Made by a program: the position numbers and the translations under genes. From positions 1-64,000 of the IMG/VR virus record IMGVR_UViG_3300007540_000013: 64,000 bases of DNA, one strand, 5' to 3'. This stretch comes from a virus. Position 1 is the first letter of the stretch; each line of letters begins with the position of its first letter. The notes under the pieces are model-generated. The model ran no database searches. It had not been told where the DNA came from and worked only from the letters and a program-made list of their open reading frames with translations. Positions 27,100-43,211 of this stretch are shown piece by piece.

Positions 27100-27231
27100 A
27101 TGGGAAAGATTAACCTTAATGATTTAGAAGACTACGAAGAGGACTATGTACCTTATGAACCTATTAAGAAAAAGAAGAAGAAAGTAACTCCTATTTATAA
27201 TAAAGATTTTCCGGACGAGTTGGATAACTAA
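27100..27231 (+). CDS. 43-aa acidic/poly-Lys peptide
   Basis: MGKINLNDLEDYEEDYVPYEPIKKKKKK... Confidence 0.45.
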   Translation: MGKINLNDLEDYEEDYVPYEPIKKKKKKVTPIYNKDFPDELDN

Positions 27232-27250
27232 CCTTTTGTTCGTATATTTA
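27191..27250 (+). promoter_or_regulatory. Tandem late motif (CTATTTATA 27191) and early promoter (TTG 27220-N20-TATATTTA)
   Basis: Both motifs present directly upstream of 27258. Confidence 0.6.
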
Positions 27251-27257
27251 GATCAAT

Positions 27258-27608
27258 ATGAAAGAGCAATTATTAGAAACAGTTAAAGAGGTTCTCAACG
27301 AAGCTACTAAAGTAAACTTTAAAGGACATAAGTTTATACTCAGAGTAGATGTAAATGAGGACCCTAACAAGAAAGGTATTAAGGTTCAATTCCTACCAAC
27401 TACCTTCGGAGCTATGTCCCCTCAAGAGCAGAACGATATCGCTATCGCTTTAGGAGACAAACTAGACTCAGGTCTAAACCGATTTGGTATGCGAGTAGAG
27501 AGAGACCGTAATTTAAAAGATAAGAGCGTTGTAGGCTTCTTTATCTACATTGAATACATCGATAAGATTATTCGCCAAGCGTTAGGTCAATCTCAAGAAG
27601 AACTTTAA
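27258..27608 (+). CDS. Hypothetical protein (possible head-internal protein)
   Basis: N-terminal LLE...VLNE. Confidence 0.7.
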   Translation: MKEQLLETVKEVLNEATKVNFKGHKFILRVDVNEDPNKKGIKVQFLPTTFGAMSPQEQNDIAIALGDKLDSGLNRFGMRVERDRNLKDKSVVGFFIYIEYIDKIIRQALGQSQEEL

Positions 27609-27614
27609 AAGGTT

Positions 27615-27788
27615 ATGGAAAAATACAAATGTTATAATACTTCTGATACTAATCAGGAGACTGTGTCTATAGTAGAAGCTGAAAATATACACGCTGCAAT
27701 TAATTATTTTGCAGCACAGAAAAAGTTGTCTGTTGAGAATTTTCTTCGTATATTTAGTGTCAGCGAATGGAAACAAAAGAATACATAA
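27615..27788 (+). CDS. 57-aa hypothetical protein
   Basis: aaggttATG start; contains an embedded promoter at 27726-27756. Confidence 0.6.
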   Translation: MEKYKCYNTSDTNQETVSIVEAENIHAAINYFAAQKKLSVENFLRIFSVSEWKQKNT

Positions 27789-28168
27789 GAGACGTTTTAA
27801 CAGATGATCTACCTCTATCTTTTAGAGTTAAGACATTATCTAAGCCAATCGAAGAAGTGAAGAAGAAGACTTTTGTGGAAGTTATCAATCTCTTGAGAGA
27901 GATAAATGACCGAACAGATTTCATGGCTACAGAGTTAGGAATGGATGTAGTCGGGTATGATGATAAGTTCTTTCAAGCTATCGAAGGCTTATTAAAGATA
28001 GCTTTTAATAAGAAGCAAGTACTACTTATTGAAATGTACCTAAACGATATTCCGATGATGAAAGAAAACTGGGATGGTACTATTACAGTTCAGATAAAAG
28101 AAGAAGAAATACAGATAGCTTTCGAGACACCATTAGATGTCTGGAATGCTATTCAAAGATTTAATTAA
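27767..28168 (+). CDS. Hypothetical protein
   Basis: ORF downstream of promoter at 27726. Confidence 0.7.
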   Translation: METKEYIRDVLTDDLPLSFRVKTLSKPIEEVKKKTFVEVINLLREINDRTDFMATELGMDVVGYDDKFFQAIEGLLKIAFNKKQVLLIEMYLNDIPMMKENWDGTITVQIKEEEIQIAFETPLDVWNAIQRFN

Positions 28169-28173
28169 GTTAT

Positions 28174-28542
28174 ATGATAAAGAGGTTTTGTAAGGTGTGT
28201 GGTGAACAGATTCACCCCATGCGATTAAAAGTACTGCCGACCGCAGTCACTTGTGTAGAGCATTCCACTACAGGTCAGAAGAGAGCTCGAACTCTCTCAT
28301 TAGGTCAAGGAGATCATAATTATAATGAGATCGAGATCTTAGACGAAAAAGTATACCGTCAGGTAGTAGCAGTTGAATATGGAGAGCGATCTCCACTAGA
28401 TGATCTAATTGAAGCTCAAGACTACGAAGCTGAAGCAGTATCGGATAAATCCGGAAGCTTACAGAAGAGAGCACGTCTAATCGAAAACGATGAAGATGAA
28501 GGTTACGTACTCCCAGATGATTACGATCATAACGAACTATAA
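28174..28542 (+). CDS. DksA/TraR-type zinc finger protein with acidic tail
   Basis: CKVCGEQIHPMRLKVLPTAVTCVEHS. Confidence 0.7.
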   Translation: MIKRFCKVCGEQIHPMRLKVLPTAVTCVEHSTTGQKRARTLSLGQGDHNYNEIEILDEKVYRQVVAVEYGERSPLDDLIEAQDYEAEAVSDKSGSLQKRARLIENDEDEGYVLPDDYDHNEL

Positions 28543-29195
28543 TGTTAGAGAAGAAGAAAGGACGGCCTAGAAAGATTCTCACTAGAGAAGATATTGAACG
28601 TGCTATTAAGATGACTAAATCTAATAAAGCAGCTGCTCGATACCTTCACGTATCCTTTCCTCATTATAAGACTTACGCTAAGATGTATGAGAATGAAGAG
28701 GGACAGACTCTTTACGACTCACATCTAAATCAAGCCGGAAAGGGTATACCTAAGTTCTTAACTAGTAAAGGTAAGGAACCAGCTATTGAAAAGATAATTG
28801 ACGGAACCCTTCCGGTAGAGCACTATAAGCCTGAGAAGATTAAAAGGAAGTTAATTGCGGAAGGATATCTTAAAGAGGAATGTAAGCGCTGCAGGTACAC
28901 TGAAGCAAGAGTCTTTGATAATAAAGTACCTTTAGTTCTCAATTTCAAAGATAAGAATAGACATAACTATAACCTTGATAACATAGAGATGCTATGTTAT
29001 AATTGTTCATTCCTATATGCAGCTTCTCCTATATCTGAAGAGCAGGTAGCACAGATGGAGAGTTATATTGAAAGAGCAGGTATACAGGAGCATGATTGGG
29101 AGTTAGATGAATCTCATATTGAGCATTTAAAAGAGTTAGGGTTGTGGGAAGAAGATAATAGTAAGCCAGGTGATGAATTTATTTCTAGAATATGA
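28542..29195 (+). CDS. HTH plus degenerate HNH-like zinc-binding domain
   Basis: SNKAAARYLHVS HTH; CKRC...PLVLNFKDKNRHNYNLDNIEMLCYNC. Confidence 0.7.
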   Translation: MLEKKKGRPRKILTREDIERAIKMTKSNKAAARYLHVSFPHYKTYAKMYENEEGQTLYDSHLNQAGKGIPKFLTSKGKEPAIEKIIDGTLPVEHYKPEKIKRKLIAEGYLKEECKRCRYTEARVFDNKVPLVLNFKDKNRHNYNLDNIEMLCYNCSFLYAASPISEEQVAQMESYIERAGIQEHDWELDESHIEHLKELGLWEEDNSKPGDEFISRI

Positions 29196-29368
29196 AAAAG
29201 GTACCCCGAAGACGCCAACACGCCCAGTTAGATCAGGAAAAGAATAAGAGAAAGCTTCTAGAGAAGCATGCCGATAAGCTGCTTGAGCAAGATAAGAAGA
29301 ATAAGAAGTTAAGTGAGAAGTTGCTTGATAAAGATATTTTTACTATATTTGGTGATGAAGATGAATAA
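29192..29368 (+). CDS. 58-aa basic coiled-coil protein
   Basis: ATGA overlap with upstream stop. Confidence 0.55.
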   Translation: MKKVPRRRQHAQLDQEKNKRKLLEKHADKLLEQDKKNKKLSEKLLDKDIFTIFGDEDE

Positions 29369-29382
29369 AGGTTATAGTTGCT

Positions 29383-29553
29383 ATGAGAAAAAGAAAGCAT
29401 GGAAAGGTAAGTAACTTCAAATACCATGGAGTTATTATCGAGAAAGATGAGATAAGTTATCAAGTTATCCACCAGACCAAAGAATTAACCTACGCTATTC
29501 CTATCGGAAGAAAAGGTCTAGTAGGAGGAGGAGTAGAAAGATTTAAAAGATAA
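29383..29553 (+). CDS. 56-aa hypothetical protein
   Basis: Fills gap; stop abuts next promoter. Confidence 0.45.
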   Translation: MRKRKHGKVSNFKYHGVIIEKDEISYQVIHQTKELTYAIPIGRKGLVGGGVERFKR

Positions 29554-29607
29554 GTTGGTTACTTAGAAAATATTTCGTATATTTAACATGTTAAAGTAAT
29601 AAAGGTT

Positions 29608-29955
29608 ATGGGAGAGAAAAGAGGTAATTTAGTTAAGTTAGTCTATGATTTCGATACTGTGAAGGTATGTGAGATAGGAGTAACTAAGGAAGAAGGGATT
29701 ACGTGGTACCGAGTAACAGCTAAGAGATTTAGATCATGGGATGGACCTAGAAGGTTAACTGGTCCTATCGAACAACCAGGTCACGGAATAGAAGCTTTCC
29801 AGAATATCGAAATGGAGACTATTGACTACGAAGGACCTCTTTACTTATATGAAACTAATATAAGGAAAGAAAAGGAAGGAACTGAAACTTACTGTGAACC
29901 AATTAAATCAGAGATAGATGAAACGCTTTACGTTCGACCAGGTAACAGACTTTAG
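29608..29955 (+). CDS. Hypothetical protein
   Basis: Promoter at 29555-29585 and aaaggttATG. Confidence 0.75.
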   Translation: MGEKRGNLVKLVYDFDTVKVCEIGVTKEEGITWYRVTAKRFRSWDGPRRLTGPIEQPGHGIEAFQNIEMETIDYEGPLYLYETNIRKEKEGTETYCEPIKSEIDETLYVRPGNRL

Positions 29956-30217
29956 TGATTTTTTTTCTGGAAGCAATCACGAGATAACAGATGCAATTGT
30001 AGAAGGAATTAAAGCAGCTATTGAAGCAAAGAAAGAAGAAGCAGAATTATTTGAGCTAGGCTTCCATGAAGAGGATGACTTCTTCGAAGTATCTCTACAG
30101 AAGGATGAATGGCCTCAAGCTCTTAGCGCCTGTATGACTAAGTACGAAGACGCTGAGATGTATGATCAGGTTATCGATACCTTCGAATTACTAAGAGAAG
30201 CAACAGATTTACTATAA
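29918..30217 (+). CDS. Acidic hypothetical protein
   Basis: ORF track; very acidic. Confidence 0.7.
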   Translation: MKRFTFDQVTDFSDFFSGSNHEITDAIVEGIKAAIEAKKEEAELFELGFHEEDDFFEVSLQKDEWPQALSACMTKYEDAEMYDQVIDTFELLREATDLL

Positions 30218-30477
30218 TGGCTTACATTCCAAAAGATACAGTAAAAGAGAATAGGGTACAAGAAGTCTACTTTGAAGATGACGATGTAACTATCAGGTAT
30301 ACTTTTAAGTTTAATCGAATGGTAAAGTCTGAGATCTTTTACGGAAGAGGTTATAAGTCTCCTCAACAGGAGTTAGATGAGATGAATAAAGGACTGCCGA
30401 AGACTAAGCGTAAGTACCTCGACGACGAAGGAAAGATAGTAGGTTACTTAACTGCTAAGAAAAAAGGGTTAATCTAG
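30217..30477 (+). CDS. Hypothetical protein
   Basis: Coupled ORF. Confidence 0.7.
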   Translation: MAYIPKDTVKENRVQEVYFEDDDVTIRYTFKFNRMVKSEIFYGRGYKSPQQELDEMNKGLPKTKRKYLDDEGKIVGYLTAKKKGLI

Positions 30478-30527
30478 TTGGAATTAAGTAACTTAGTTCG
30501 TATATTTAAGTATAATAAAAAAGATAA

Positions 30528-31343
30528 ATGGTTATGAATTACTTGACTAAAGAAGAGCTTAAAGCCCAATGCCCTGTAGCGTTCGCTACTCAACCGACTA
30601 ACGATGCGGTAACTGATAAGTATGTTCACATCTCTACTGAGAAGGTGATCGATGATTTAGAAAAACTAGGATGGAAACCTGTAGAAGCTACTCAGCGTAA
30701 AGGCAGAGGTAAGAAAACTATCTTTAGTAAACATATGGTACAATTCCAGAACCCAGACATTATCGTTAAAGGTGATGATGGTGATGATGCTTTCCCTCGC
30801 ATACTACTTACAAACTCTCATGACGGTATGACCTCATTCCAGTTCCGTATGGGTATCTTCCGTTTAGTATGTTCAAATGGATTGGTGATCGCTACTGAGG
30901 AGTTTGAGTCATTTAAGATTCGCCACAAAGGATATACCTTTGAAGAATTACGTGAGGTAGTTCTGAAGGCTGTAACTGATCTACCTAATAAGGTTGAGGT
31001 TATGAATAAGATGTCTCAACGAGAATTATCAAAAGAAGAACAACGTAAGTTAGCTTTAGATGCTTTCTTAATCCGCTCCGGAATTACTCCTGGTAGTGAG
31101 GAAGCTAAGAAGAAAGACTATGATGAAGAGACTCTAGATGAGATCTTGGAAGTACGTCGTCAAGCTGATGAAGGAGATACTCTCTGGAAAGTATTCAATC
31201 GAGTACAAGAGGCTGTCACTCAAGGAGGCTTCTCAGCAGCTTTAAAAGGTGCTAAGGTGCGTAAGGTTCGTAAGATTAAATCTTTCGAGAAAGATACTAA
31301 GATCAATCAAGAGCTATTCAAACTAGCTACAGCATTGATTTAA
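30528..31343 (+). CDS. DUF932/DUF945 family protein
   Basis: LLTNSHDGMTSFQFRMGIFRLVCSNGL, LWKVFNRVQE; start may be 30534. Confidence 0.85.
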   Translation: MVMNYLTKEELKAQCPVAFATQPTNDAVTDKYVHISTEKVIDDLEKLGWKPVEATQRKGRGKKTIFSKHMVQFQNPDIIVKGDDGDDAFPRILLTNSHDGMTSFQFRMGIFRLVCSNGLVIATEEFESFKIRHKGYTFEELREVVLKAVTDLPNKVEVMNKMSQRELSKEEQRKLALDAFLIRSGITPGSEEAKKKDYDEETLDEILEVRRQADEGDTLWKVFNRVQEAVTQGGFSAALKGAKVRKVRKIKSFEKDTKINQELFKLATALI

Positions 31344-31350
31344 AAAAGAT

Positions 31351-31380
31351 AGGGAGGTTAGTTGCCTCCCTTACTTATTT
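31351..31380 (+). terminator. Hairpin AGGGAGG-TTAGTTG-CCTCCCT whose loop is the -33 box of the next promoter
   Basis: 7-bp stem followed by T-rich tract. Confidence 0.6.
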
Positions 31381-31415
31381 TTCGTATATTAAGGTATAAG
31401 AAAAAGATAAAGGTT

Positions 31416-33070: not shown

Positions 33071-33168
33071 CAAACCGTCAGGTAACCGTCGGAAAACCGT
33101 CAAGATAGCCAACCGTCAGGTAACCGTTAGGAAATCGTTGGCAAACCGTCTAAGAGCAAACCGTTCAT
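33071..33168 (+). repeat. Array of 8 AACCGTC-like repeats with 11-bp phasing
   Basis: CCGT cores at 33075, 33086, 33097, 33113, 33124, (33135), 33146, 33161. Confidence 0.9.
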
Positions 33169-33210: not shown

Positions 33211-33303
33211 GTGGGATAAAGTTTAACAAAGTTTGTTGGTTAGTTGGATGTCTGGGTAATAGTTCTTATATTTAACATGTTAAAGAAAGAGATAATAAAG
33301 GTT

Positions 33304-33540
33304 ATGAGAAACAATCGCACAAACAACAATTTCTACCCTCAGGGTTACTTAGGTAAGATTGCTTACCACATGTTCAAAGGAAACTTTGATAAGGTTCAGT
33401 ACTTTGCAAAGAGACAGGTTCAGACTTACGGAGACATCTCGGAGGATGATGATCGTATTATCAATCGCCTAGTGCTTGACTTCAAACGCCAGCAGGAGGC
33501 AGAGGAACGTGAGTTCCAGTCGCATTTGGGACGGATCTGA
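33304..33540 (+). CDS. Early hypothetical protein
   Basis: True start at aaaggttATG 33304. Confidence 0.75.
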   Translation: MRNNRTNNNFYPQGYLGKIAYHMFKGNFDKVQYFAKRQVQTYGDISEDDDRIINRLVLDFKRQQEAEEREFQSHLGRI

Positions 33541-33546
33541 TTCGAG

Positions 33547-33591
33547 TTAAAGTAAAGCTTTAAGTAAATTACAGTTAAAGTGATGCTTTAA
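33547..33591. promoter_or_regulatory. Two tandem TTAAAG-N5-CTTTAA palindromes
   Basis: 33547-33563 and 33575-33591. Confidence 0.6.
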
Positions 33592-33659
33592 GTGAAAAGG
33601 TATTGGAAAACTTTTCCAGAAAGTAGTTGGATATATGAGAGATAGTTCATATATTCAGC

Positions 33660-33750
33660 TCTTCTTATAACCTTTCCCAGACACTCGCGTACCCGCCCGT
33701 CTACTCTTCCGATCTTATCTCAGGATCAGGCCCGTCTTCCCATCTAACTT
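33660..33750 (-). ncRNA. Candidate small non-coding RNA between convergent promoters
   Basis: Minus-strand TTG(33784)-N20-TATATTAA promoter; GC-rich; no ORF. Confidence 0.35.
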
Positions 33751-33875
33751 ACCTTAATATAAGAAGAATAAACCAGACTACCAACTAACTCACAAAGTTT
33801 TTTTATTTTAAATTAAAGTTGGATCGTAAGGATATAGTTCTTATATTTAGAATGTAATAATAAAAAGAGATAGTT

Positions 33876-33953
33876 ATGTTAGTATTTACATTAGTGTTGT
33901 CAATGTTGTTTATCGGAGCTGGAGCTTTGTATTTCTCAGATGATTTAAAGTAG
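33876..33953 (+). CDS. 25-aa hydrophobic peptide
   Basis: MLVFTLVLSMLFIGAGALYFSDDLK directly after promoter element. Confidence 0.6.
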   Translation: MLVFTLVLSMLFIGAGALYFSDDLK

Positions 33954-33958
33954 AGGTT

Positions 33959-34222
33959 ATGAGTAAGTTAGAGTTTAATACAGAGTGTACGGTATCGATC
34001 TATCCATCAGTAGAGATGATGAATAAGATGGGGTATAAGTCGATGTATGATATGTCAGATGATCTTAAGGATGTAGTAAAGATCAACTACCCAGGTCTTC
34101 TGGAAGAGGGTTATGCACAGTTTGATCCGGAATCAGAAGGGTTTATGGTCTACTGTACTGATAGGGATGTACAAGAGACGATTTACGATGAGTGGAAAGA
34201 ATTTGTAAATAGTTGTATTTAA
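33959..34222 (+). CDS. Acidic early protein
   Basis: aggttATG start. Confidence 0.8.
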   Translation: MSKLEFNTECTVSIYPSVEMMNKMGYKSMYDMSDDLKDVVKINYPGLLEEGYAQFDPESEGFMVYCTDRDVQETIYDEWKEFVNSCI

Positions 34223-34279
34223 AGTTGCCTCCTAAGAGATTAGTTCTTATATTTACATTGTAATAAAAAGATAAGGGTT

Positions 34280-34603
34280 ATGAATAAGACACAAGTACGT
34301 CGTTTGAAAGTTAACAGAGCATTGAAGGCTCTAATCATTAATCACAATGCATTCAACATCGAGGATGCTGATGGTGGCAGAATGGATTTCTGTGTAGAGG
34401 GTCCTTACGGACATACTTACCAGTGTCAGTTTACTAGAAATGGATTTGATGTTGCAGTCTATGATGCAATTGGTTTAGCTGGAGATGGATGGTCAGAAGA
34501 TGATCACAGAATCCAGCAGACTGCTAGTGAGTTAGAATTCTTGATCAATGCTACAGTAAAGAAAGAATTGGAAAAAGTGGAGGCATTAGTTGCCTCCGCT
34601 TAA
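34280..34603 (+). CDS. Early hypothetical protein
   Basis: Cassette element upstream. Confidence 0.85.
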   Translation: MNKTQVRRLKVNRALKALIINHNAFNIEDADGGRMDFCVEGPYGHTYQCQFTRNGFDVAVYDAIGLAGDGWSEDDHRIQQTASELEFLINATVKKELEKVEALVASA

Positions 34604-34643
34604 TTTAGTTCGTATATTTACATTGTAATAAGAAATAAAGGTT

Positions 34644-34805
34644 ATGGTTAACGTAAAGGCACTATTGAAGAGAATGAAGTACGAATTGGCTGAAGAGCAG
34701 TCAAGCTGTACTACACATTGGTCAGATGAGCAGTTTGAGGACTTCGCTAACATCATCGAAGATCTAGAAGAAGCTATTAAGAAAGATGAGAAAGTAGTTG
34801 TTTAA
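34644..34805 (+). CDS. 53-aa early protein (not in ORF track)
   Basis: Cassette element upstream; MVNVKALLKRMKYEL... Confidence 0.8.
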   Translation: MVNVKALLKRMKYELAEEQSSCTTHWSDEQFEDFANIIEDLEEAIKKDEKVVV

Positions 34806-34851
34806 TTGCAATTTCTTTCTTATATTTACATTGTAATAGAAAATAAAGGTT

Positions 34852-34998
34852 ATGTTGACAGCAGTTCAAAGAAGCGGAGAAGATGATATGGGGTTCACTT
34901 GGTTTGAGGTTTTCCGGAATGGTAAGACTACAGGCAATTCATTTAATGCTCTAGATGAGGATCACGCTATCAGAATGTTTAAACAATTTCGGGAATAA
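34852..34998 (+). CDS. 48-aa early protein (not in ORF track)
   Basis: Cassette element upstream; MLTAVQRSGEDDMGFTWF... Confidence 0.8.
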   Translation: MLTAVQRSGEDDMGFTWFEVFRNGKTTGNSFNALDEDHAIRMFKQFRE

Positions 34999-35053
34999 GT
35001 TGGATCGTATTGATTTAGTTCTTATATTTACATTGTAATAAAAAATAAAGGTT

Positions 35054-35335
35054 ATGTTAGTAGATCACACATCATTCAGTCGTAAAGACGCACAAGCAGT
35101 ACAAATGTTATTAAGCGTATACGCAGAACACTTCGCTGGAGAGTATTTTCATATTGCAAAGAACGAACGTTCCGGAAATGTATATATGAGTTTCGATCAT
35201 ACAGCGGTATGTCCATTTGTAACTTCGGATGGGGAGCTGTTTTTTGAAGTGTTCAATTTCGAAACAAATGAAACGTTTGAAACAGATTCGATTAAAGAAG
35301 CAGAATATGCTAATGAAAATATTTTTACAGCATAA
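35054..35335 (+). CDS. Acidic early protein
   Basis: Cassette element upstream. Confidence 0.85.
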   Translation: MLVDHTSFSRKDAQAVQMLLSVYAEHFAGEYFHIAKNERSGNVYMSFDHTAVCPFVTSDGELFFEVFNFETNETFETDSIKEAEYANENIFTA

Positions 35336-35390
35336 GTTGGTTACTAAGTATTTAGTTCTTATATTTACATTGTAATAAAAAATAAAGGTT

Positions 35391-35594
35391 ATGTTAGTTA
35401 GATGTGTTAAGGGTTTTAAGTTAGATGGCGGTTCATTAGGTATTCTCAGAGGAGAGGTATTTAAGCAAATGGATTTTGGAGATGATATTGATGGTTGTGA
35501 TTTTGAAGCAACAGATTTATCTCGCTTTCCTGGATCAGTTATTTTCTTTCCGGAAGATGTATTGGTAGAATATTTTGAAATAGTCAGCGAATAA
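35391..35594 (+). CDS. Acidic early protein
   Basis: Cassette element upstream. Confidence 0.85.
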   Translation: MLVRCVKGFKLDGGSLGILRGEVFKQMDFGDDIDGCDFEATDLSRFPGSVIFFPEDVLVEYFEIVSE

Positions 35595-35650
35595 GTTGGC
35601 TATTCAAGATTTTATTCTTATATTTACATTGTAATAAAAAGATAAGGGTT

Positions 35651-35815
35651 ATGAATAATTTGTACAGCTTAGATTGTGTTTTCTACAGAGAGAGTTTTGG
35701 ATCGATTAATGAATTGATCGATGATGTTGTGTCTTCCGGAATGGATCCTAATTATGAAATTACCAAGAATGGTGTAAAGACAGGTGAATGTATTATTGAT
35801 TTAATTCAATTTTAA
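35651..35815 (+). CDS. 54-aa early protein (not in ORF track)
   Basis: Cassette element upstream; MNNLYSLDCVFY... Confidence 0.8.
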   Translation: MNNLYSLDCVFYRESFGSINELIDDVVSSGMDPNYEITKNGVKTGECIIDLIQF

Positions 35816-35870
35816 GTTGGATCGTATTGATCTAGTTCGTATATTTACATTGTAATAAAAAATAAAGGTT

Positions 35871-36212
35871 ATGGTAAAGGTTTTGAAAGCTGAAGAAGCG
35901 AGAATTAACGGAACGTATTTGGTGGGATATCTAGAAGATGTCAATTTCATGGACCTGGTAACGGGTTTAGGTGAACCTACTTTTGATGATCCTTCCGGAG
36001 ATGATAAGGTTCAAGTTGAATGGGTTTGTAAATTCAATGGTAAAATATTTACGATTTACGATTGGAAAACTTATGATCGTGAATTTACTGAGCATAGTTT
36101 GACGAAATTCAATGTCGGAGGTAAGGATGTTTCCGGTTTGGAAGTTCAGGAATTTATCGAATTTGTCAAAGGGCAGATTGAGTACGCATACGATAATTTT
36201 GATTTAGCATGA
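35871..36212 (+). CDS. Early phage protein
   Basis: GDDKVQVEW...FTIYDWK; cassette element upstream. Confidence 0.85.
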   Translation: MVKVLKAEEARINGTYLVGYLEDVNFMDLVTGLGEPTFDDPSGDDKVQVEWVCKFNGKIFTIYDWKTYDREFTEHSLTKFNVGGKDVSGLEVQEFIEFVKGQIEYAYDNFDLA

Positions 36213-36361
36213 TATATAAAGTAAAATTACTAGGCAAAGTTCTAGCTCAGTTCAAGGATGACTTTGAACGGGCTAGGGATTATGCCGATAGGTTTCCGGC
36301 AAAGGATAATGTCGAGGTCTATGAGAATCAGAATTTAGTTTTCATAAAGTTTAACAAATAG
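36209..36361 (+). CDS. 50-aa early protein
   Basis: ATGA overlap; stop overlaps next element. Confidence 0.65.
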   Translation: MIYKVKLLGKVLAQFKDDFERARDYADRFPAKDNVEVYENQNLVFIKFNK

Positions 36362-36420
36362 TTGCTTAACCGAATATTAGTTCGTATATTTACGAAGTAA
36401 TAAACAAACAAATAAAGGTT

Positions 36421-37245
36421 ATGAAAAAAGAAATGGAATTAGAATTGCAGCTTCAAGAAGCTCAGACCGCTTACGGAATGTTATTCGATCAGAAAGTAAG
36501 TGCTCGTACGACTGTTATCGCTAATGCATTTAGTGAATTTATTGCTCCGGAAAATACTCGTTTGAGTGCTCGTGAGAAGAGTGTTGAATTTGATCTTATG
36601 GAAGATCGCTACGCTAATACTTTGGCTCGTCTAGAGATTAGAGATGCTTACGATGATGATTACCGCAAGACGGGGTACGAAGGTGCTTACCGATTCAATA
36701 GCGGAGGTGATAAGGAGATCAAGTTCCTTCCGGCAATGGCTGAGTTCATCAAGATTGCTTCTGATAAGGTTGATAAGATATGTAAATTGTTTGTTGATAT
36801 CGATCAGTCTTTTGGTCCTAAGATGCTAGAAGCTAGAAAGGTACGTGATGGTATTCAGAGTGAATTGAATGAGATCGATTACGCTCGTCAGCAAGCTAAG
36901 AAGGATGCTATCTTAGATCTTATGAAGTCGGAAGAAGGATTTGTACCTCTATCTGCTAAACCTAATAAGGAGTACGGATGGAATCAGACTACGAGTCTTC
37001 AGATGAAGTTCAACTGGGAAGTTAGAAGCCCAGCTCTTATCAAAGTTATAGGTCAGTCTGCTTCCGGAAAGAGTGTTAAGGTTCTAGTTAGTATCAATCG
37101 TTACGATAATAGTATGTTTACTTACGAGCCAGAGACTATTCGAATGGAGAATCTTCAGAGCTTTATCAACCGAGAGGTTAACTTCAGAGATCGAGTTGAA
37201 TCAGAGTTAGAGGGATTCGAGATCGTACAAGGGTTGTTACTCTAA
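36421..37245 (+). CDS. Early coiled-coil hypothetical protein
   Basis: Cassette element upstream. Confidence 0.85.
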   Translation: MKKEMELELQLQEAQTAYGMLFDQKVSARTTVIANAFSEFIAPENTRLSAREKSVEFDLMEDRYANTLARLEIRDAYDDDYRKTGYEGAYRFNSGGDKEIKFLPAMAEFIKIASDKVDKICKLFVDIDQSFGPKMLEARKVRDGIQSELNEIDYARQQAKKDAILDLMKSEEGFVPLSAKPNKEYGWNQTTSLQMKFNWEVRSPALIKVIGQSASGKSVKVLVSINRYDNSMFTYEPETIRMENLQSFINREVNFRDRVESELEGFEIVQGLLL

Positions 37246-37268
37246 GAGATAGAATATAGAAATGCCTT

Positions 37269-37387
37269 AGGCCGCCTTAGTGCGGCTTTTGGTGGTGCCG
37301 GAGGTCGCAGTCGACCTGATTCTTGGTCCTCCCTCTGGCGCCTTTATTTTTATTACCGAAGGAAGAGCTGGCTTATGCCGGCTTTTC
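37269..37387 (+). terminator. Three stacked GC-rich hairpins, each followed by a T tract (terminators or structured RNA)
   Basis: Stems 37270-75/37282-87, 37294-303/37333-42, 37366-72/37377-83. Confidence 0.6.
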
Positions 37388-37452
37388 TGGGTTAAGAGTT
37401 GCTAGTCTGAATTATATTTCGTATATTTACGTAGTAATAAAAAGAAAGAGAT

Positions 37453-37590
37453 ATGTTTAAGTTAACGCAGTACAGAAGATTAGAGATGGATAGTTTGTTT
37501 AAAGGCTATGCAAATGGATTTATCACTGATGATGAATTAGATTTCATGCTCGATATTACACTTGGTGAGGTAAGTAATGTTCAATTTTAA
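37453..37590 (+). CDS. 45-aa early protein
   Basis: Cassette element upstream. Confidence 0.75.
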   Translation: MFKLTQYRRLEMDSLFKGYANGFITDDELDFMLDITLGEVSNVQF

Positions 37591-37602
37591 GGAATAAGAG
37601 TT

Positions 37603-37764
37603 ATGAAGTTAGTTAGAGAATTTACTTGTACACTTACTGGGGATGAATGTGTAGTTGTCCTGAATGCTTTTAATCAGGAGGTCTGTCTTCTTAAGTCAGA
37701 GTACTTAGAGATAAAGTCTAATGTTGCTCATGATAAGCGAGAGCTTGAAATGGAAATAGGTTAA
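37603..37764 (+). CDS. 53-aa early protein
   Basis: gagttATG start. Confidence 0.65.
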   Translation: MKLVREFTCTLTGDECVVVLNAFNQEVCLLKSEYLEIKSNVAHDKRELEMEIG

Positions 37765-37836
37765 AATCTTTTTCCGGAATAGTTGCCTCCCTGAGGCATA
37801 GTTCGTATATTTACAGAGTAATAAAAAGAAAAGGTT

Positions 37837-38067
37837 ATGACTTACGAGCAAATTGAAAAGATGAGCAAAGACGATCTAGTCTATGCATTCAAAAGACTAA
37901 CTGAGATCGCAGAAGATGCTTCTAGCCAGTTCAAAGAGATGGAAGCTAAGTACGATACCATAGACGAGGACTACTGCGCTCATAGCCACATCGGTTACTG
38001 TGAAGCAAGCTTTAGCATCCTGCTAGGACGTCTAGAGAGTGTTGTGGATGTGCTAACAAAGAAGTAA
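37837..38067 (+). CDS. Acidic helical early protein
   Basis: Cassette element upstream. Confidence 0.85.
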   Translation: MTYEQIEKMSKDDLVYAFKRLTEIAEDASSQFKEMEAKYDTIDEDYCAHSHIGYCEASFSILLGRLESVVDVLTKK

Positions 38068-38149
38068 CATTCCGGAAAAAAAGTTAGGGAGGTAGTTGCC
38101 TCCCCGGCTTTACTTTCGTATATTTACTATGTAATAAAAAATAAAGGTT

Positions 38150-38665
38150 ATGTCAAAGGTTTTAGATTATGTTTACGCTTCAGAAGTAATTAACAACTAC
38201 AAAGAGTCTATCAAAGCTCGCAATGAGAAGAACGATTGCTTTGTAAGAGCGGTAGCTAGTGCTTCTGGAAGTTCATACGATGCTGCTCACAGCTATGTTA
38301 AGGATACTTTCGGCCGTCAAGAGCGCCAAGGTACAATGTTCGTTGACTCTACTATGCTACAGATAGAAGGTAAGCTCCAAGAGTTCGGTCAAGTAAAGGT
38401 TAAGTTCGAGAAGCTAGAGAAGAAGCTAGTAAGAAATACTTATAAGCTTCATGGTGAACTGATCGATAGAAAGAAGACAGTTAAGTCTTTTATCAAAACG
38501 AACCCTAAAGGTACTTTCATCGTACTAGTAGCTGGTCATGCTTTCACAATCAAAGATGGAGTGCTGGTAGATAATCAAGGTGAGGAGTTCAGACCTACTA
38601 GAAAGGTTCAGAGTGCCTATAAGGTCATAGAGGAGACAATAGATCCTCAGCTTAAACTCTTCTAA
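38150..38665 (+). CDS. Early protein with papain-like Cys-His-Asp signature
   Basis: NDCFVRA...LVAGHAFTIKDGVLVD. Confidence 0.6.
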   Translation: MSKVLDYVYASEVINNYKESIKARNEKNDCFVRAVASASGSSYDAAHSYVKDTFGRQERQGTMFVDSTMLQIEGKLQEFGQVKVKFEKLEKKLVRNTYKLHGELIDRKKTVKSFIKTNPKGTFIVLVAGHAFTIKDGVLVDNQGEEFRPTRKVQSAYKVIEETIDPQLKLF

Positions 38666-38682
38666 GATAGAGATATAGAGAT

Positions 38683-38702
38683 AGGGCCTTAGGGCCCTTT
38701 TC
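38683..38702 (+). terminator. Rho-independent terminator AGGGCC-TTAG-GGCCCT followed by T tract
   Basis: Perfect stem plus T tract ending the cassette array. Confidence 0.8.
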
Positions 38703-38744: not shown

Positions 38745-38820
38745 CAAGGTGACGTCAAGGTGATAGCACTGTGACAGAAAACTGCCAGTAAATTTCACTA
38801 GACGGTTTTCTCAACGGTTA
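38745..38820 (-). repeat. Degenerate 11-bp-phased repeats (TGACGG-like), inverted relative to the 33071 array
   Basis: Cores at 38750, 38761, 38772, 38783, then GACGGTT 38801 and AACGGTT 38813. Confidence 0.6.
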
Positions 38821-39484: not shown

Positions 39485-39925
39485 ATGAAGCCATTAGATC
39501 CTTCCTTCTTTGATATGTTTGATTACTCCGATGGAGAGGATCTTGAGAGAGCAGGCATGATTGATTCTCTAAGCGATTACTTAGAGCATCCTTATTTGCT
39601 ATTCGGCTCAGTGATACGAGGTGTAGAGAATTTCTATATAGTAAGAGAGATGTATACCCGTACCTATAAGGAGGAATTTGAGAGAGTAGAGGAGAACGTT
39701 AAGAGTAAGTACTTTAATAGATTGTATACGTTCTTAGAAAGATTCGATGAGAGCGATGATGATTTCATAGCCGAAGCCAAGAGATTTGAAGTACCCGAAT
39801 CATCCTACGCTCTTATATCTCTACGCTCTTACTTTGAAACTAAAGAGGAGTATGAGAAGTGTGCTAAGATCCAGTCTATATTCACAAAACTTTCTCTAGA
39901 TGAGAGTTGCGTATATGATTTTTAA
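39485..39925 (+). CDS. Hypothetical protein with UVR-like C-terminal motif
   Basis: YFETKEEYEKCAKIQ; CTATTTATA at 39473. Confidence 0.75.
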   Translation: MKPLDPSFFDMFDYSDGEDLERAGMIDSLSDYLEHPYLLFGSVIRGVENFYIVREMYTRTYKEEFERVEENVKSKYFNRLYTFLERFDESDDDFIAEAKRFEVPESSYALISLRSYFETKEEYEKCAKIQSIFTKLSLDESCVYDF

Positions 39926-39957
39926 TTCGTATATTTAAGTAATTAAATAAAACGGTT

Positions 39958-40149
39958 ATGATTAATGGAATCCTTACTTACATCTTCATTGGTGTTATTT
40001 GTAATTTTGTATTTGACTTACTAGTCAATCAATTAGAGATAGAAGAGCAGCGCTTTACTATCACCGAGCGCATCGTTACTACGGCTTTATGGCCTATAGC
40101 GTTAGCAGTATTTATATATAATTTTCTTAAAGGATTATTTAAATCATGA
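39958..40149 (+). CDS. Small two-TM protein
   Basis: Promoter at 39907-39937. Confidence 0.75.
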   Translation: MINGILTYIFIGVICNFVFDLLVNQLEIEEQRFTITERIVTTALWPIALAVFIYNFLKGLFKS

Positions 40150-40772
40150 TAAGAGATATAATTACCTTAGAGAAGGCTATTAAGTTAGAATCTGAGTCTC
40201 TCTTGACTCTATACTACCCCAGTACCTCCTATGATAACCTCCCAGATGTTCTTTCTATAGAGAAATATACTGATAACTTCATCTCTTACGCTAAAGAGCA
40301 CTCTAGAAAGCCAATAGACTCTCTCATACACCTTTTATCACCAGAGTACGAGGTAGAGGTTCAAATGCCATTCGATGAGAAGACCGGAACCTTTCATTGG
40401 GTACGGCTCTTTGGTAAGATACAGCAAGTATCCTCTATTGTATCCGAGGAGAAGCACCGTGGGTGGGTCTACCTCTTAACTAACCCTGCTCATCCCGAAC
40501 TTATCAAGATCGGTAAAGCTGTTACGCCTTCATCCCGCATCAAAGGCATTAACGGGGCAGGTACCGTAGATGAATGGTCTTTAAGAGCAGCTATGCCTGT
40601 CTCGGAAGACTATACCGTTGAGAATCTCGTACATACACAATTGGCACAATATAGAAGAGACTCTAACCAAGGATCTTCAAGAGAATTTTTTGAAGTTCCG
40701 CTATCGTTAGCAATGAGCACTTTATTAGAAGTATCCGAACCATTTAAAGCAGGAGATCTTGTATTATATTAA
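40146..40772 (+). CDS. GIY-YIG (T5orf172-type) domain protein
   Basis: GWVYLLTNP...IKIGKA...RIKGIN...E..VH...REFF. Confidence 0.8.
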   Translation: MIRDIITLEKAIKLESESLLTLYYPSTSYDNLPDVLSIEKYTDNFISYAKEHSRKPIDSLIHLLSPEYEVEVQMPFDEKTGTFHWVRLFGKIQQVSSIVSEEKHRGWVYLLTNPAHPELIKIGKAVTPSSRIKGINGAGTVDEWSLRAAMPVSEDYTVENLVHTQLAQYRRDSNQGSSREFFEVPLSLAMSTLLEVSEPFKAGDLVLY

Positions 40773-40941
40773 AATTTGCGTGTCAACTTTTTTCGCGCTC
40801 GCGGCGCGTGGTAAAACTTTTTTATAAAACGCTTGCTTCCCCGAGATATTTTTATTAACTTAAAGGTATATAAGATATTATATAGTATAATATAAATTAT
40901 ATATTAATATTAATATAAAGAATAATACTTAGTAAAGAAAT

Positions 40942-41121
40942 ATGAGAAACAAAGAATTATTTCAACAAAAAGTTACTCGTCTTGAATCTATGATGAATAA
41001 TATAGGTAGAGCAGTATCTTTAAATGAGCAACAACAAGCTTTCGATGGTATCGAAAGAGCTAAAGTTATGCTCAATGACCTACAAACTATGTTAAACCGA
41101 GAATCAACTACATTTGAGTAA
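40942..41121 (+). CDS. 59-aa helical protein (not in ORF track)
   Basis: MRNKELFQQKVTRLESMMNNIG... Confidence 0.65.
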   Translation: MRNKELFQQKVTRLESMMNNIGRAVSLNEQQQAFDGIERAKVMLNDLQTMLNRESTTFE

Positions 41122-41122
41122 T

Positions 41123-41857
41123 ATGCTTACTGCTGAACAGATTTTAGAGAATTATAATAAGCATCTTGCTATTATTAACTCATCTATCACCGGTGATCGA
41201 CGTGATTTAGTGCTTTCTATGATAGAAACCGTTGGAGAAACCTATGTTATGTCACCTGCTAGTGGGAAATCGTGGTATCATAATGCTTTTGCCGGTGGTT
41301 ACGTTGATCATGTCAATAGAGTCGTTGAAACTGCGGTGAAAATGATGAAATTCTGGGAATCGATGGGTGGAACTATCGATTTTACCCAAGAGGAACTCGT
41401 TTTTGCTGCTCTTTTCCATGATTTAGGTAAAATAGGTGATGGAAACAGTGCTGGATACATTGAACAGACTGATAACTGGCGTAGAGATAAGCTAAATGAG
41501 ATGTACAAACCTAATCCTGAGTTAGATTTCATGATGATCCCTGATAGATCTCTATACATACTCCAGAAGTTCGGTATTCAAGTATCTCACAAAGAGTATT
41601 TAGGTATCAAACTACACGATGGTGTCTTTGATGACGGGAATAAGCCATACTTCTTTAGTTACAACCCAGACTCTCGTATGAGAACTAACATAGTCAACGT
41701 TCTACACATGGCAGACTACATGGCTTCTAAGGTAGAATACGATATGTGGAAGAGAGATGGTGGAAAAACCACTCCATCTACTCAGAAAACTAAATCTTCC
41801 ACAGGTAAGACTATTAAATCATCAGAAGGACTTAGTAATTTTATAAAAAATATTTAG
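41123..41857 (+). CDS. HD-domain phosphohydrolase (YhaM-like)
   Basis: PAS...HNAFAGGYVDH, LFHDLGK, KLHDG, HMAD. Confidence 0.88.
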   Translation: MLTAEQILENYNKHLAIINSSITGDRRDLVLSMIETVGETYVMSPASGKSWYHNAFAGGYVDHVNRVVETAVKMMKFWESMGGTIDFTQEELVFAALFHDLGKIGDGNSAGYIEQTDNWRRDKLNEMYKPNPELDFMMIPDRSLYILQKFGIQVSHKEYLGIKLHDGVFDDGNKPYFFSYNPDSRMRTNIVNVLHMADYMASKVEYDMWKRDGGKTTPSTQKTKSSTGKTIKSSEGLSNFIKNI

Positions 41858-41859
41858 AA

Positions 41860-42159
41860 ATGTTGGTTTTATCAATTATTTTAGCTATATTACTGATTAT
41901 ACTTGGATACTTTACTTGGAATTTACTAAGAAAAGTAGAAAAGTACGAAGATATAGCACAGTATCAACAAAATTATATCGAGAATGTATCCACCGTTATT
42001 GGTGAATCCTCAAAAAGGTTACGTGAAGTTGATGAAAAAGGAACTTTTGAGTCGGATGACGAAATTGGATTTTTCTTCAAAGGGGTAAAAGAGATACAAA
42101 GTATACTTGATGAGTTTAACCTTAACGTAACCGATGGGCAGAAAAAAGAGCAAAGCTAA
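41860..42159 (+). CDS. TM-anchored hypothetical protein
   Basis: N-terminal TM; GTFESDDEIGFFF. Confidence 0.75.
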   Translation: MLVLSIILAILLIILGYFTWNLLRKVEKYEDIAQYQQNYIENVSTVIGESSKRLREVDEKGTFESDDEIGFFFKGVKEIQSILDEFNLNVTDGQKKEQS

Positions 42160-42838
42160 TTACTTTACCCAAGAAACCGAAGATGCAATCGTAGCTTATA
42201 ATAATTCAAAAGATTTTGAGTTTAGGAATAAGATTTTTAGTGATAGGATTTATTACCCTCTATACAAGCTAGCAGAAAACATAATTCATACTTTTAAATT
42301 TTACTATACCGATGTAGACGATCTCGAGGATTTAAAACTTGAGGTCGTTTCCCTGTTAGTAGAAGAGAAGTTACATATGTTCGATCCTACTAGAGGAGCA
42401 AAAGCATACTCGTACTTTGGAACTATTGTTAAGCGTCACTTAATTAATTATAATAATAAGAATTATAAGAGAGTTAAGCAGCAGACAACTATGGATGTAT
42501 GGGAAGGAAGTTACGATTTCAACACTCCTGAGATTCACCCCTACGCATTATCTTTAAAACAGGTATTTGATATGTACATCGATGAAATGTATGATAAGTT
42601 AGATGACCTGTTCACTAAAGATGCTGATAGACAGATAGCAGACGCCGTCTTAACGTTATTTAAAAAACGTTACGACTTAGATATTTTCAAAAAGAAAGCT
42701 CTCTATATTTACATTCGAGAAATAACCGGTACCGAAACACCGTACCTCACCAGAGTCATAAACGTACTAAAAGAAGAGTTCTATATAATCTACAACGAAC
42801 TTAACGAAAAAGGGTTAATTGACTTAAATAAGTACTGA
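42134..42838 (+). CDS. Phage RNA polymerase sigma factor (gp55-like late sigma)
   Basis: KLAENII..F.FY, KLHMFDPTRGAKAYSYFGTIVKR (sigma region 2-like). Confidence 0.75.
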   Translation: MGRKKSKANYFTQETEDAIVAYNNSKDFEFRNKIFSDRIYYPLYKLAENIIHTFKFYYTDVDDLEDLKLEVVSLLVEEKLHMFDPTRGAKAYSYFGTIVKRHLINYNNKNYKRVKQQTTMDVWEGSYDFNTPEIHPYALSLKQVFDMYIDEMYDKLDDLFTKDADRQIADAVLTLFKKRYDLDIFKKKALYIYIREITGTETPYLTRVINVLKEEFYIIYNELNEKGLIDLNKY

Positions 42839-42840
42839 TT

Positions 42841-42849
42841 CTATTTATA
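42841..42849 (+). promoter_or_regulatory. Putative late promoter CTATTTATA
   Basis: In the 22-bp gap before the structural operon; also at 46077, 54689, 59793. Confidence 0.65.
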
Positions 42850-42860
42850 AAAGAAAAGGT

Positions 42861-43211
42861 ATGGGGTTAGATAAAACACTCTTTAAAGAAAAATCTTTTT
42901 CCGACGTACTAGAAGAGATCTACACTAATTCTAAGAAGAAAGAAAAGCAGATCAATACTCTCATCGGAGAACTTAAACCTCTTATTGAAAACATAGGAGA
43001 CGCTACTCTTGTTGTTCCTATGATTGCTAACTACTTAGAGATAGGTGTTAAGAATGATAAACACTTAATTGATATGCTTGCTGTTGTACAACGTATGGAG
43101 AATGCATCTAAAAACGGTGATGCAGCAGGATTTGAACTAGGCGCTGATGAGCTTGCTCAAATCTTAGAGCAGATGGAAGAGGAAGCAGAAGAGCCTAAGC
43201 AAGGAGAATAA
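42861..43211 (+). CDS. Helical hypothetical protein
   Basis: ORF track. Confidence 0.75.
   Translation: MGLDKTLFKEKSFSDVLEEIYTNSKKKEKQINTLIGELKPLIENIGDATLVVPMIANYLEIGVKNDKHLIDMLAVVQRMENASKNGDAAGFELGADELAQILEQMEEEAEEPKQGE

Follow-up and report, generated by a model that had tools for sequence, protein, structure and literature searches.

The 64,000-nt stretch of viral DNA analyzed here (hereafter the window; bases 1–64000 of the 99,005-bp, ~60% complete IMG/VR virus record IMGVR_UViG_3300007540_000013) carries a tandem array of small, co-oriented gene cassettes, each of which opens with a copy of the same promoter–leader module and abuts the next without a spacer. Considering both the layout of these modules and the variation of the array among relatives, we find it probable that the modules act as strong host-type early promoters and as joining points for the gain, loss, and reordering of whole units. 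The closest known system is the promoter-early stem-loop (PeSL) cassette of T4-type phages, and the array, which a first-pass annotation of the sequence had called integron-like, is better named “PeSL-like promoter/leader cassettes”. Its source is best explained as a virulent myophage of large size that infects marine or estuarine Flavobacteriia and is a relative of Flavobacterium phage vB_FspM_immuto (hereafter immuto), with the array as the hyperplastic early-gene region of that phage.

The means by which phages obtain and trade their many small accessory genes have long been in question, with two main rival accounts: homologous exchange at conserved linkers, and illegitimate recombination at random sites with subsequent selection. 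Linker exchange has its best-documented case in T4-type phages only. The locus described here displays the PeSL logic in unrelated and abundant phages of marine and estuarine Flavobacteriia, with a quite different promoter type, and it provides a natural data set of at least 132 cassette types on at least 121 contigs.

The module is strongly enriched and strand-biased. Searching for TATATTTACNNNGTAATAAAAA with up to three mismatches returned 12 matches on the + strand, between 33842 and 38140, where 0.14 were expected from shuffling. The core, GTTG-N20-TATATT, occurs 27 times in forward and five times in reverse orientation across the 99,005-bp record (mean of 1.6 after mononucleotide shuffling), with a spacing of exactly 20 nt in 26 of the 27 forward cores. 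Fourteen co-oriented cores, one at each cassette start in Table 1, fill the interval 33244–38702, and 12 of them carry the leader TAC-nnn-GTAATAAAAA..AAAGGTTATG; the exceptions are 33243, with a variant leader, and 33626, which opens a non-coding unit. The 13 copies counted in the first-pass annotation are thus right to within definition. Its confinement of the element to this interval, however, did not hold, as further cores lie on both sides (Table 1; a weaker one also at 41862), and the promoter family spans 27.2–41.9 kb, with only the leader-bearing subclass limited to 33.8–38.2 kb.

Each module begins with a −33 element, TTG, followed by 20 nt and the −7 element TATATTTA. Bacteroidota sigma-A promoters have a −7 element TAnnTTTG at −12 to −5 and a −33 element TTTG or TTG ~19–21 nt upstream, with transcription starting 5–7 nt downstream of the −7 element; in Flavobacterium the −33 element is TTTG and the median 5′ untranslated region (5′UTR) is 24 nt (PMC6847099, PMC9723704). 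Applying this Bacteroidota sigma-A (sigma-ABfr) rule places TTG at −35 to −33, TATATTTA at −12 to −5, and TAnnTTT at −12 to −6, in agreement with both elements save for the last base, which is A and not G. The earlier −33/−7 reading is therefore supported by the geometry and by the pattern of conservation, in which boxes are conserved and spacers variable across genera and at least 526 metagenomic copies. On this layout, transcription is predicted to start at the G or A of GTAATA, near +36 (counted from the G of GTTG), which would give a 5′UTR of 20–22 nt, close to the median cited above, and the modules would be active as promoters early in infection. The ~30 bp of near-identity beyond the −7 box had been thought to exceed the needs of a promoter. 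With a start near +36, this part resolves into a discriminator and a ~20-nt 5′UTR ending in AAAGGTTATG; the stretch is specific to module and lineage, as fits recombination or homogenization and, equally well, a leader-binding regulator.

Comparison with relatives links the modules to cassette turnover. A metagenome scan with the module pattern yielded at least 119 stretches which, together with two closer viral contigs (G001 and G002), make up 121 contigs from 59 metagenomes; the population counts given throughout refer to these listed contigs, which derive from short-read metagenome assemblies save for one Sanger scaffold. They contain at least 526 co-oriented cores against 35 on the opposite strand, the latter including the conserved convergent promoter of the non-coding unit, and at least 405 complete units that fall into at least 132 sequence families (74 singletons). 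The strings of units are all different in the 44 contigs with four or more units, and at least nine pairs of families were seen in both relative orders. A backbone order is kept (78-aa, non-coding, 107-aa, 93-aa, 113-aa, 274-aa, 76-aa, and 171-aa units), with variable units slotted between its members. The unit at 35816..36360 has seven alternative left neighbors, each in at least two samples, the 76-aa unit (37782..38094) at least 13 distinct ones, and two genes that stand behind a single promoter in the window (45 aa and 53 aa) are split, reordered, or provided with their own promoters in G001 and G002. Relatives therefore differ by whole units, gene content and order are clearly not invariant, and breakpoints fall in the element, in line with the first-pass proposal that the element marks cassette gain, loss, and shuffling.

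Individual junctions show where the units are joined. At 226 of 360 distinct junction contexts the upstream stop codon abuts or overlaps the −33 box as TAGTTG or TAAGTTG, confirming an arrangement already noted in the first pass, and in two units of the window the ORF (open reading frame) extends into the next spacer. Four contigs join the 107-aa unit directly to the 93-aa unit, at a place where the window holds two extra units (410 bp), and the joining module is a chimera: its upstream part, up to and including the spacer and with the hairpin, matches the 34589 module, and from the start codon on it matches the 34999 module. Among 226 non-identical junctions, 50% of the pairs that shared the upstream unit and differed in the downstream one had spacers of at least 80% identity, compared to 12% for the converse and 2% for the background. 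Upstream-linked identity lasts to about +16 and the profiles merge at +17 to +32, the TAGTTCKTATATTTAC core; linkage hence switches inside the conserved −7 core, and the leader is less tightly linked to the gene that follows. Of the ends of homology blocks found by BLAST, 52–53% are located in modules (19% expected). Different units are also joined in contigs that stem from other studies (two DNA runs and two RNA-library runs), with the joints at module positions +13 to +17 or +39 to +40. Unrelated units that are adjacent in a contig have more similar leaders, 18% of such pairs being at least 90% identical versus 4% otherwise, and the observed value was reached in 2 of 200 permutations. Strong hairpins (≤−12 kcal/mol) were found at 53 of 364 distinct junctions (15%), as opposed to 1 of 364 after shuffling; in the window they occur at the modules 31361, 34589, 35595, and 38095, most modules being without one, and the hairpin at 34575–34601 overlaps the −33 box of the 34589 module (minimum free energy −21.8, z −7.2). 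Two joints that lead back within the array (35820 to 35012 and 38158 to 35389) were considered as possible circles and set aside, alternative orders in relatives fitting them equally.

In the mechanism we propose, a unit would consist of a strong host-type promoter, a ~20-nt 5′UTR ending in AAAGGTTATG, and one to three small, mostly acidic ORFan genes, with the next unit starting at or within the preceding stop codon. On infection, all units would be switched on simultaneously by the RNA polymerase of the host. Recombination between modules, within a genome or between co-infecting relatives, would then delete, insert, duplicate, or reorder whole self-expressing units: deletions would arise by exchange between direct repeats, insertions by the reverse reaction or by unequal exchange between co-infecting relatives, and conversion between neighboring modules would homogenize their leaders. 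The expected outcome is that the population as a whole shares a pool of more than 130 types of cassette, arranged along a backbone whose order is conserved. Joining is presumably by homologous recombination, with a role for the leader, and immuto has a RecA/UvsX-like frame; classical recombination is no more likely than exchange that is replication-linked or uses short homology, and selection for intact units after illegitimate events may contribute. Since immuto and its host are in culture, start sites, circles, and recombination rates are directly measurable.

Several observations weigh against this account. The final base of the −7 box is A, where the host consensus has a nearly invariant G at −5 (PMC6847099), which leaves room for a modified or phage-directed polymerase specificity. 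Contigs from RNA libraries cover the array yet cross the promoters and may be DNA; as they cannot show 5′ ends, they were dropped as start-site evidence. Module pairs of the genome share only short exact matches (median 15 nt, maximum 49 nt), which is marginal for classical homologous recombination, and the homogenization test is confounded in that leader types show a positional sub-structure within the array. Because the module is the sole intergenic DNA, selection for intact units after illegitimate recombination would look alike. Finally, in short-read assemblies repeats of this kind can mis-join, and many of the relatives’ contigs end in the array.

One alternative is compatible with module-based joining and concerns the leader only. 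Its near-identity could quite conceivably be kept by a phage or host factor, such as a translational repressor, an RNase, or a small RNA, that shuts off or boosts the early class, with recombination as a by-product. The leader is indeed peculiar to the array: AAAGGTTATG occurs 12 times in forward and never in reverse orientation in the 99 kb, GGTTATG is used by none of the 84 genes outside the array, and the leader has G at −3 and −4, contrary to the preference of Flavobacterium translation for A at −3 (PMC6847099). Immuto, in which the core is found 28 times forward and once in reverse, with 18 copies clustered at 60.9–76.2 kb, shares AGTTG-N20-TATATTTA, and a uniform leader of its own, TAGGTATCAATAATTAAAACA, stands in 12 of these 18 copies, as co-evolution of leader and factor would predict. 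This pattern suggests that the boxes are constrained across genera and that leaders are homogeneous within a lineage and different between lineages. One population contains both leader types, however, which argues against a leader factor, and no candidate factor was found. A small RNA encoded by the 33626 unit and antisense to the leader, the sole factor tested, was dropped, as its 9–11-nt complementarity to AAAGGTTAT varies in nine relatives while a different 65-nt core is invariant. Likewise, AAAGG was rejected as a Shine–Dalgarno sequence, being only 2 nt from the ATG and used by none of the 84 other genes, and is not a generic ribosome-binding site. Within immuto itself, two leader subclasses, GGTATCAATAATTAAAACA and GGTATAGAAATCAATTAAAAA, stand behind the same core, and the adjacent modules 70978 and 71248 have identical spacers, which suggests a recent module duplication.

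The wider distribution of the extended −7 box and leader points to a phage feature. The 26-nt stretch from TTCG through GTAATAAAAA (TTCGTATATTTACyATGTAATAAAAA) has 29 matches in the viral collection, where it occurs once each in ~25 otherwise different viral contigs, in a −33 context of TTTGG; the genes behind it are small or of replication type, such as helicase-like and kinase-like ones. Its 22-nt core has 15 matches in 596 Gb of prokaryote genomes, only partly in Bacteroidota, which is about the number expected by chance on a rough estimate and led us to reject a copied host housekeeping promoter. A bolder reading, which seems to us rather doubtful, would combine both roles: the module would serve as a lineage-specific “address tag” for common early on/off control and as a handle for the trading of units between co-infecting phages, possibly via small circles, making the array an integrase-free analogue of an integron with a pan-cassette pool of hundreds of counter-defense and takeover genes.

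Compared to recombination at the modules, it is unlikely that they are early promoters and leaders only, with rare illegitimate recombination occurring anywhere and selection retaining the joints between intact units. Such a process would place viable joints in modules, there being no other intergenic DNA, and it would suit the exact identity of often only 13–22 nt between modules and the ending of about half of the homology blocks inside gene bodies. It accounts less readily for junction modules that are clean chimeras of unchanged length and register, with the 20-nt spacing kept in the pattern-selected modules of the 121 contigs, for a linkage switch that is specific to the best-conserved 16 nt, and for the homogenization of neighboring leaders. 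Illegitimate joints would also often give partial or duplicated modules, and none were noticed. That assemblers joined strains or positions through the repeated module, and thereby faked the shuffling, is very unlikely. Repeats are identical over 30–49 nt in places, contigs of relatives often stop in the array, and joints at lower likeness thresholds may come from repeats. Yet at least 62 of at least 181 adjacencies were seen in no fewer than two independent samples and at least 26 in no fewer than three, at least ten families have two or more alternative right neighbors that are each replicated, and a variant adjacency is also present on a Sanger-era GOS scaffold, which together argue against assembly chimeras as the main cause; in addition, module repeats are shorter than a 150-nt read, and the architecture recurs in the cultured immuto, where the cassettes are entirely different. 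Least credible of all is a true integron-like system in which a site-specific recombinase captures cassettes at a site in the module: it would account for the tandem, co-oriented arrangement of unrelated small genes and for their gain and loss by whole units, but neither a tyrosine (PF00589, Phage_integrase; 14 of 14 control genomes positive) nor a serine recombinase (PF00239, Resolvase) family match was obtained in the ~60%-complete 99-kb record or the complete 160-kb immuto genome, the cassettes own their promoters, nothing attC-like is evident, and a strong hairpin stands at only ~15% of junctions.

PeSL cassettes of T4-type myophages combine an early promoter, a stem-loop, and a translation start, lie in hyperplastic regions ahead of ORFans, and mediate modular shuffling (PMC2839356, Arbiol et al. 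2010; PMC4122927, Comeau et al. 2014). The first-pass comparison with T4-type promoter/stem-loop modules is apt, as both systems share a repeated module made of upstream stop, strong host-type early promoter (predicted here), translation start signal, and start codon, its concentration in a hyperplastic region before ORFans, and whole-unit insertions, deletions, and replacements between relatives with joints in the modules. Some modules of the array also have a hairpin over the −33 box, as does a PeSL subclass. The differences concern lineage (Immutovirus-like and Flavobacteriia-infecting here, Straboviridae for PeSL), promoter type (Bacteroidota −33/−7 versus −35/−10), the conserved A-rich 5′UTR ending in AAAGGTTATG that here replaces the Shine–Dalgarno sequence, the low frequency of strong stem-loops, and a denser packing with units of 150–550 bp. 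The evidence also differs in kind, coming from a metagenome population here and from pairs of isolates for PeSL, for which mini-circles and promoter or terminator activity have been shown. With integrons, the array shares small, unrelated, co-oriented, exchangeable units drawn from a large pool. Integrons, however, have IntI, attI, attC, and promoterless cassettes under a common Pc, whereas the array lacks integrase, attI, and attC, every unit opens with its own promoter-like module, and the joints are consistent with homology-based exchange. The SPO1 host-takeover module and the early regions of T4 and T5 likewise hold many small early genes behind strong host-polymerase promoters, as here, but in descriptions they form the fixed gene set of a single phage, unlike an array that varies unit-wise across a population. 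In halovirus HF2, also a large myovirus, ~58-bp repeated intergenic sequences act as promoters; their promoter type is archaeal, and the abstract gives them no role in cassette shuffling (PMC8707807). For phages of Flavobacterium or Cellulophaga, a literature search of limited coverage yielded no account of modules like these.

Table 1. Units of the cassette array and outlying members of the promoter family, in window coordinates; promoters are predicted.
Feature	Position	Strand	Content
Cassette 1	33243..33625	+	core 33243-33274, variant leader TAACATGTTAAAG...AAAGGTTATG; ORF 33304-33540 (78 aa, basic)
Non-coding cassette	33626..33817	.	+ core 33626-33655, convergent - core 33785-33756
Cassette	33818..34223	+	promoter and leader; ORFs 33876-33953 (25 aa, hydrophobic), 33959-34222 (87 aa, acidic)
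Cassette	34224..34588	+	promoter and leader; ORF 34280-34603 (107 aa), stop inside spacer of next element
Cassette	34589..34796	+	promoter and leader; ORF 34644-34805 (53 aa); absent from several relatives
Cassette	34797..34998	+	promoter and leader; ORF 34852-34998 (48 aa); absent from several relatives; homologue elsewhere in G001
Cassette	34999..35335	+	promoter and leader; ORF 35054-35335 (93 aa, acidic)
Cassette	35336..35594	+	promoter and leader; ORF 35391-35594 (67 aa, acidic)
Cassette	35595..35815	+	promoter and leader; ORF 35651-35815 (54 aa, acidic); hairpin over -33 box; array position varies in relatives
Cassette	35816..36360	+	promoter and leader; ORF 35871-36212 (113 aa), overlapping ORF 36209-36361 (50 aa)
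Cassette	36361..37397	+	promoter and leader; ORF 36421-37245 (274 aa), then GC-rich hairpins 37246-37395
Cassette	37398..37781	+	promoter and leader; ORFs 37453-37590 (45 aa), 37603-37764 (53 aa)
Cassette	37782..38094	+	promoter and leader; ORF 37837-38067 (76 aa, acidic)
Last leader-bearing cassette	38095..38702	+	promoter and leader; ORF 38150-38665 (171 aa, basic); terminator-like hairpin 38683-38698
Upstream promoter-family members	27219..31390	+	cores 27219, 27725, 29554, 30477, 31361, weaker 29320; leaders non-uniform
Downstream promoter-family member	39906..39957	+	heads 63-aa membrane ORF and T5orf172 gene; conserved in relatives

The 14 spacerless units head 16 ORFs of 25–274 aa, the number given in the first pass, and 13 of them are acidic (pI 4.1–5.3). 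Seven fall below 60 aa, and this small size explains why the ORF track lacks them. We detected no significant paralogy among the 16. Substitutions relative to relatives are most frequent at third, then at first, then at second codon positions in every ORF with data (36, 11, and 68 changes at positions 1, 2, and 3 of the 25-aa ORF; 62, 6, and 176 in the 45-aa ORF), and this third-position excess leads us to take the array ORFs as real genes. Searches of Pfam and PHROGs with the ten largest ORFs, leaving aside the six of 25–54 aa, returned nothing for nine of the ten. The 171-aa protein matches phrog_3754 and has a homologue annotated as a putative peptidase in a Pseudomonas phage. Its AlphaFold2 (AF2) model has a predicted local distance difference test (pLDDT) score of 85.5; the 50 best VIA-align matches are all papain-like enzymes, the best reaching only Z 7.2 and a root-mean-square deviation of 3.3 over 112 residues, and Foldseek gave nothing significant. 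With C30 and H130 invariant in six homologues, this protein is probably, at moderate confidence, a small Cys/His hydrolase of papain fold. The 274-aa protein, encoded by the most widespread cassette, is modeled (AF2, pLDDT 92) as two beta domains joined by a ~70-residue helix, for which Foldseek found no PDB match and a single uncharacterized viral look-alike; sequence searches of the PDB with the 171-aa and 274-aa proteins returned nothing, and a protein atlas gave only unnamed viral clusters. Given their size, charge, position, and variability, a role of the cassettes in anti-defense or host takeover is a reasonable guess. Few takeover or counter-defense proteins are known in Bacteroidota, and the cassettes offer a defined, self-expressing library of mostly acidic ORFan proteins that can be screened for such activities in this phylum, with the module as a candidate strong and compact expression signal for Flavobacteriia genetics.

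At the upstream end of the array, the 78-aa ORF of cassette 1 is followed by two copies of a AGTTAAAGTAAAGCTTTAAGT repeat, and in relatives the non-coding unit always comes next. This unit (33626–33817) has no ORF and no ATG on the + strand, and its ~65-nt segment between the convergent cores is near-invariant in nine relatives with variable flanks; it may specify a small RNA or a protein-binding site. A search of Rfam over 32.8–39.5 kb gave nothing meaningful, and no match for the non-coding unit. Further along, the elements at 34999 and 35336 have a 49-nt exact match in common.

The + strand carries nearly all genes of the record, which include a glycosyltransferase gene block and a baseplate wedge gene whose product is 60% identical to that of immuto, its closest cultured relative. 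Immuto (genus Immutovirus) is a Baltic Sea isolate with a complete genome of 160 kb and Flavobacterium sp. LMO8 as host. On the left flank, 27258–31343 of the window corresponds to 60.0–64.0 kb of immuto, and on the right flank 39485–43211 corresponds to 74.5–79.2 kb, so that the cluster of 18 cores in immuto occupies the syntenic place; a single gene between these flanks, in the unit at 35816..36360, has even a weak match in immuto. Shared flanks around a near-total lack of matches indicate a hyperplastic region. Conserved flanking genes are headed by the same promoter family and encode DksA/TraR zinc-finger (28174–28542), DUF932 (30528–31343), and T5orf172-domain (40146–40772) proteins, the first two being among the early genes behind the upstream family members. 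A megablast search with 12 kb against cultured phages matched nothing, and the left-flank DUF932 protein had no relatives in viral contigs.

Some further features of the region were observed. Of the six relatives found via the 171-aa protein, five end at its gene or no more than ~3.3 kb away from it, and in four cases the distance is below 900 bp; the array thus appears to be a systematic break point of assembly, and such regions are probably under-represented in viral catalogues. GC skew is maximal at 34001–38000 (0.25–0.33, versus ~0.13 over most of the upstream part of the window and ~0 downstream), where the coding strand of the cassettes is unusually C-poor. Seven of the eight TTCCGGAA palindromes of the 99-kb record lie within 34.9–38.1 kb (34912–38077), five of them inside ORFs in differing reading frames and two just upstream of −33 boxes, and in the population TCCGGA is found 9–24 nt upstream of GTTG at 53 of 360 distinct junctions. 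Finally, AACCGT is repeated seven times, mostly 11 nt apart, at 33073–33164, directly upstream of the first leader-type unit, and the inverted ACGGTT occurs twice at 38802–38819, past the 171-aa gene; this bracket is conserved, relatives holding 7–11 upstream copies and 2–3 inverted downstream copies.

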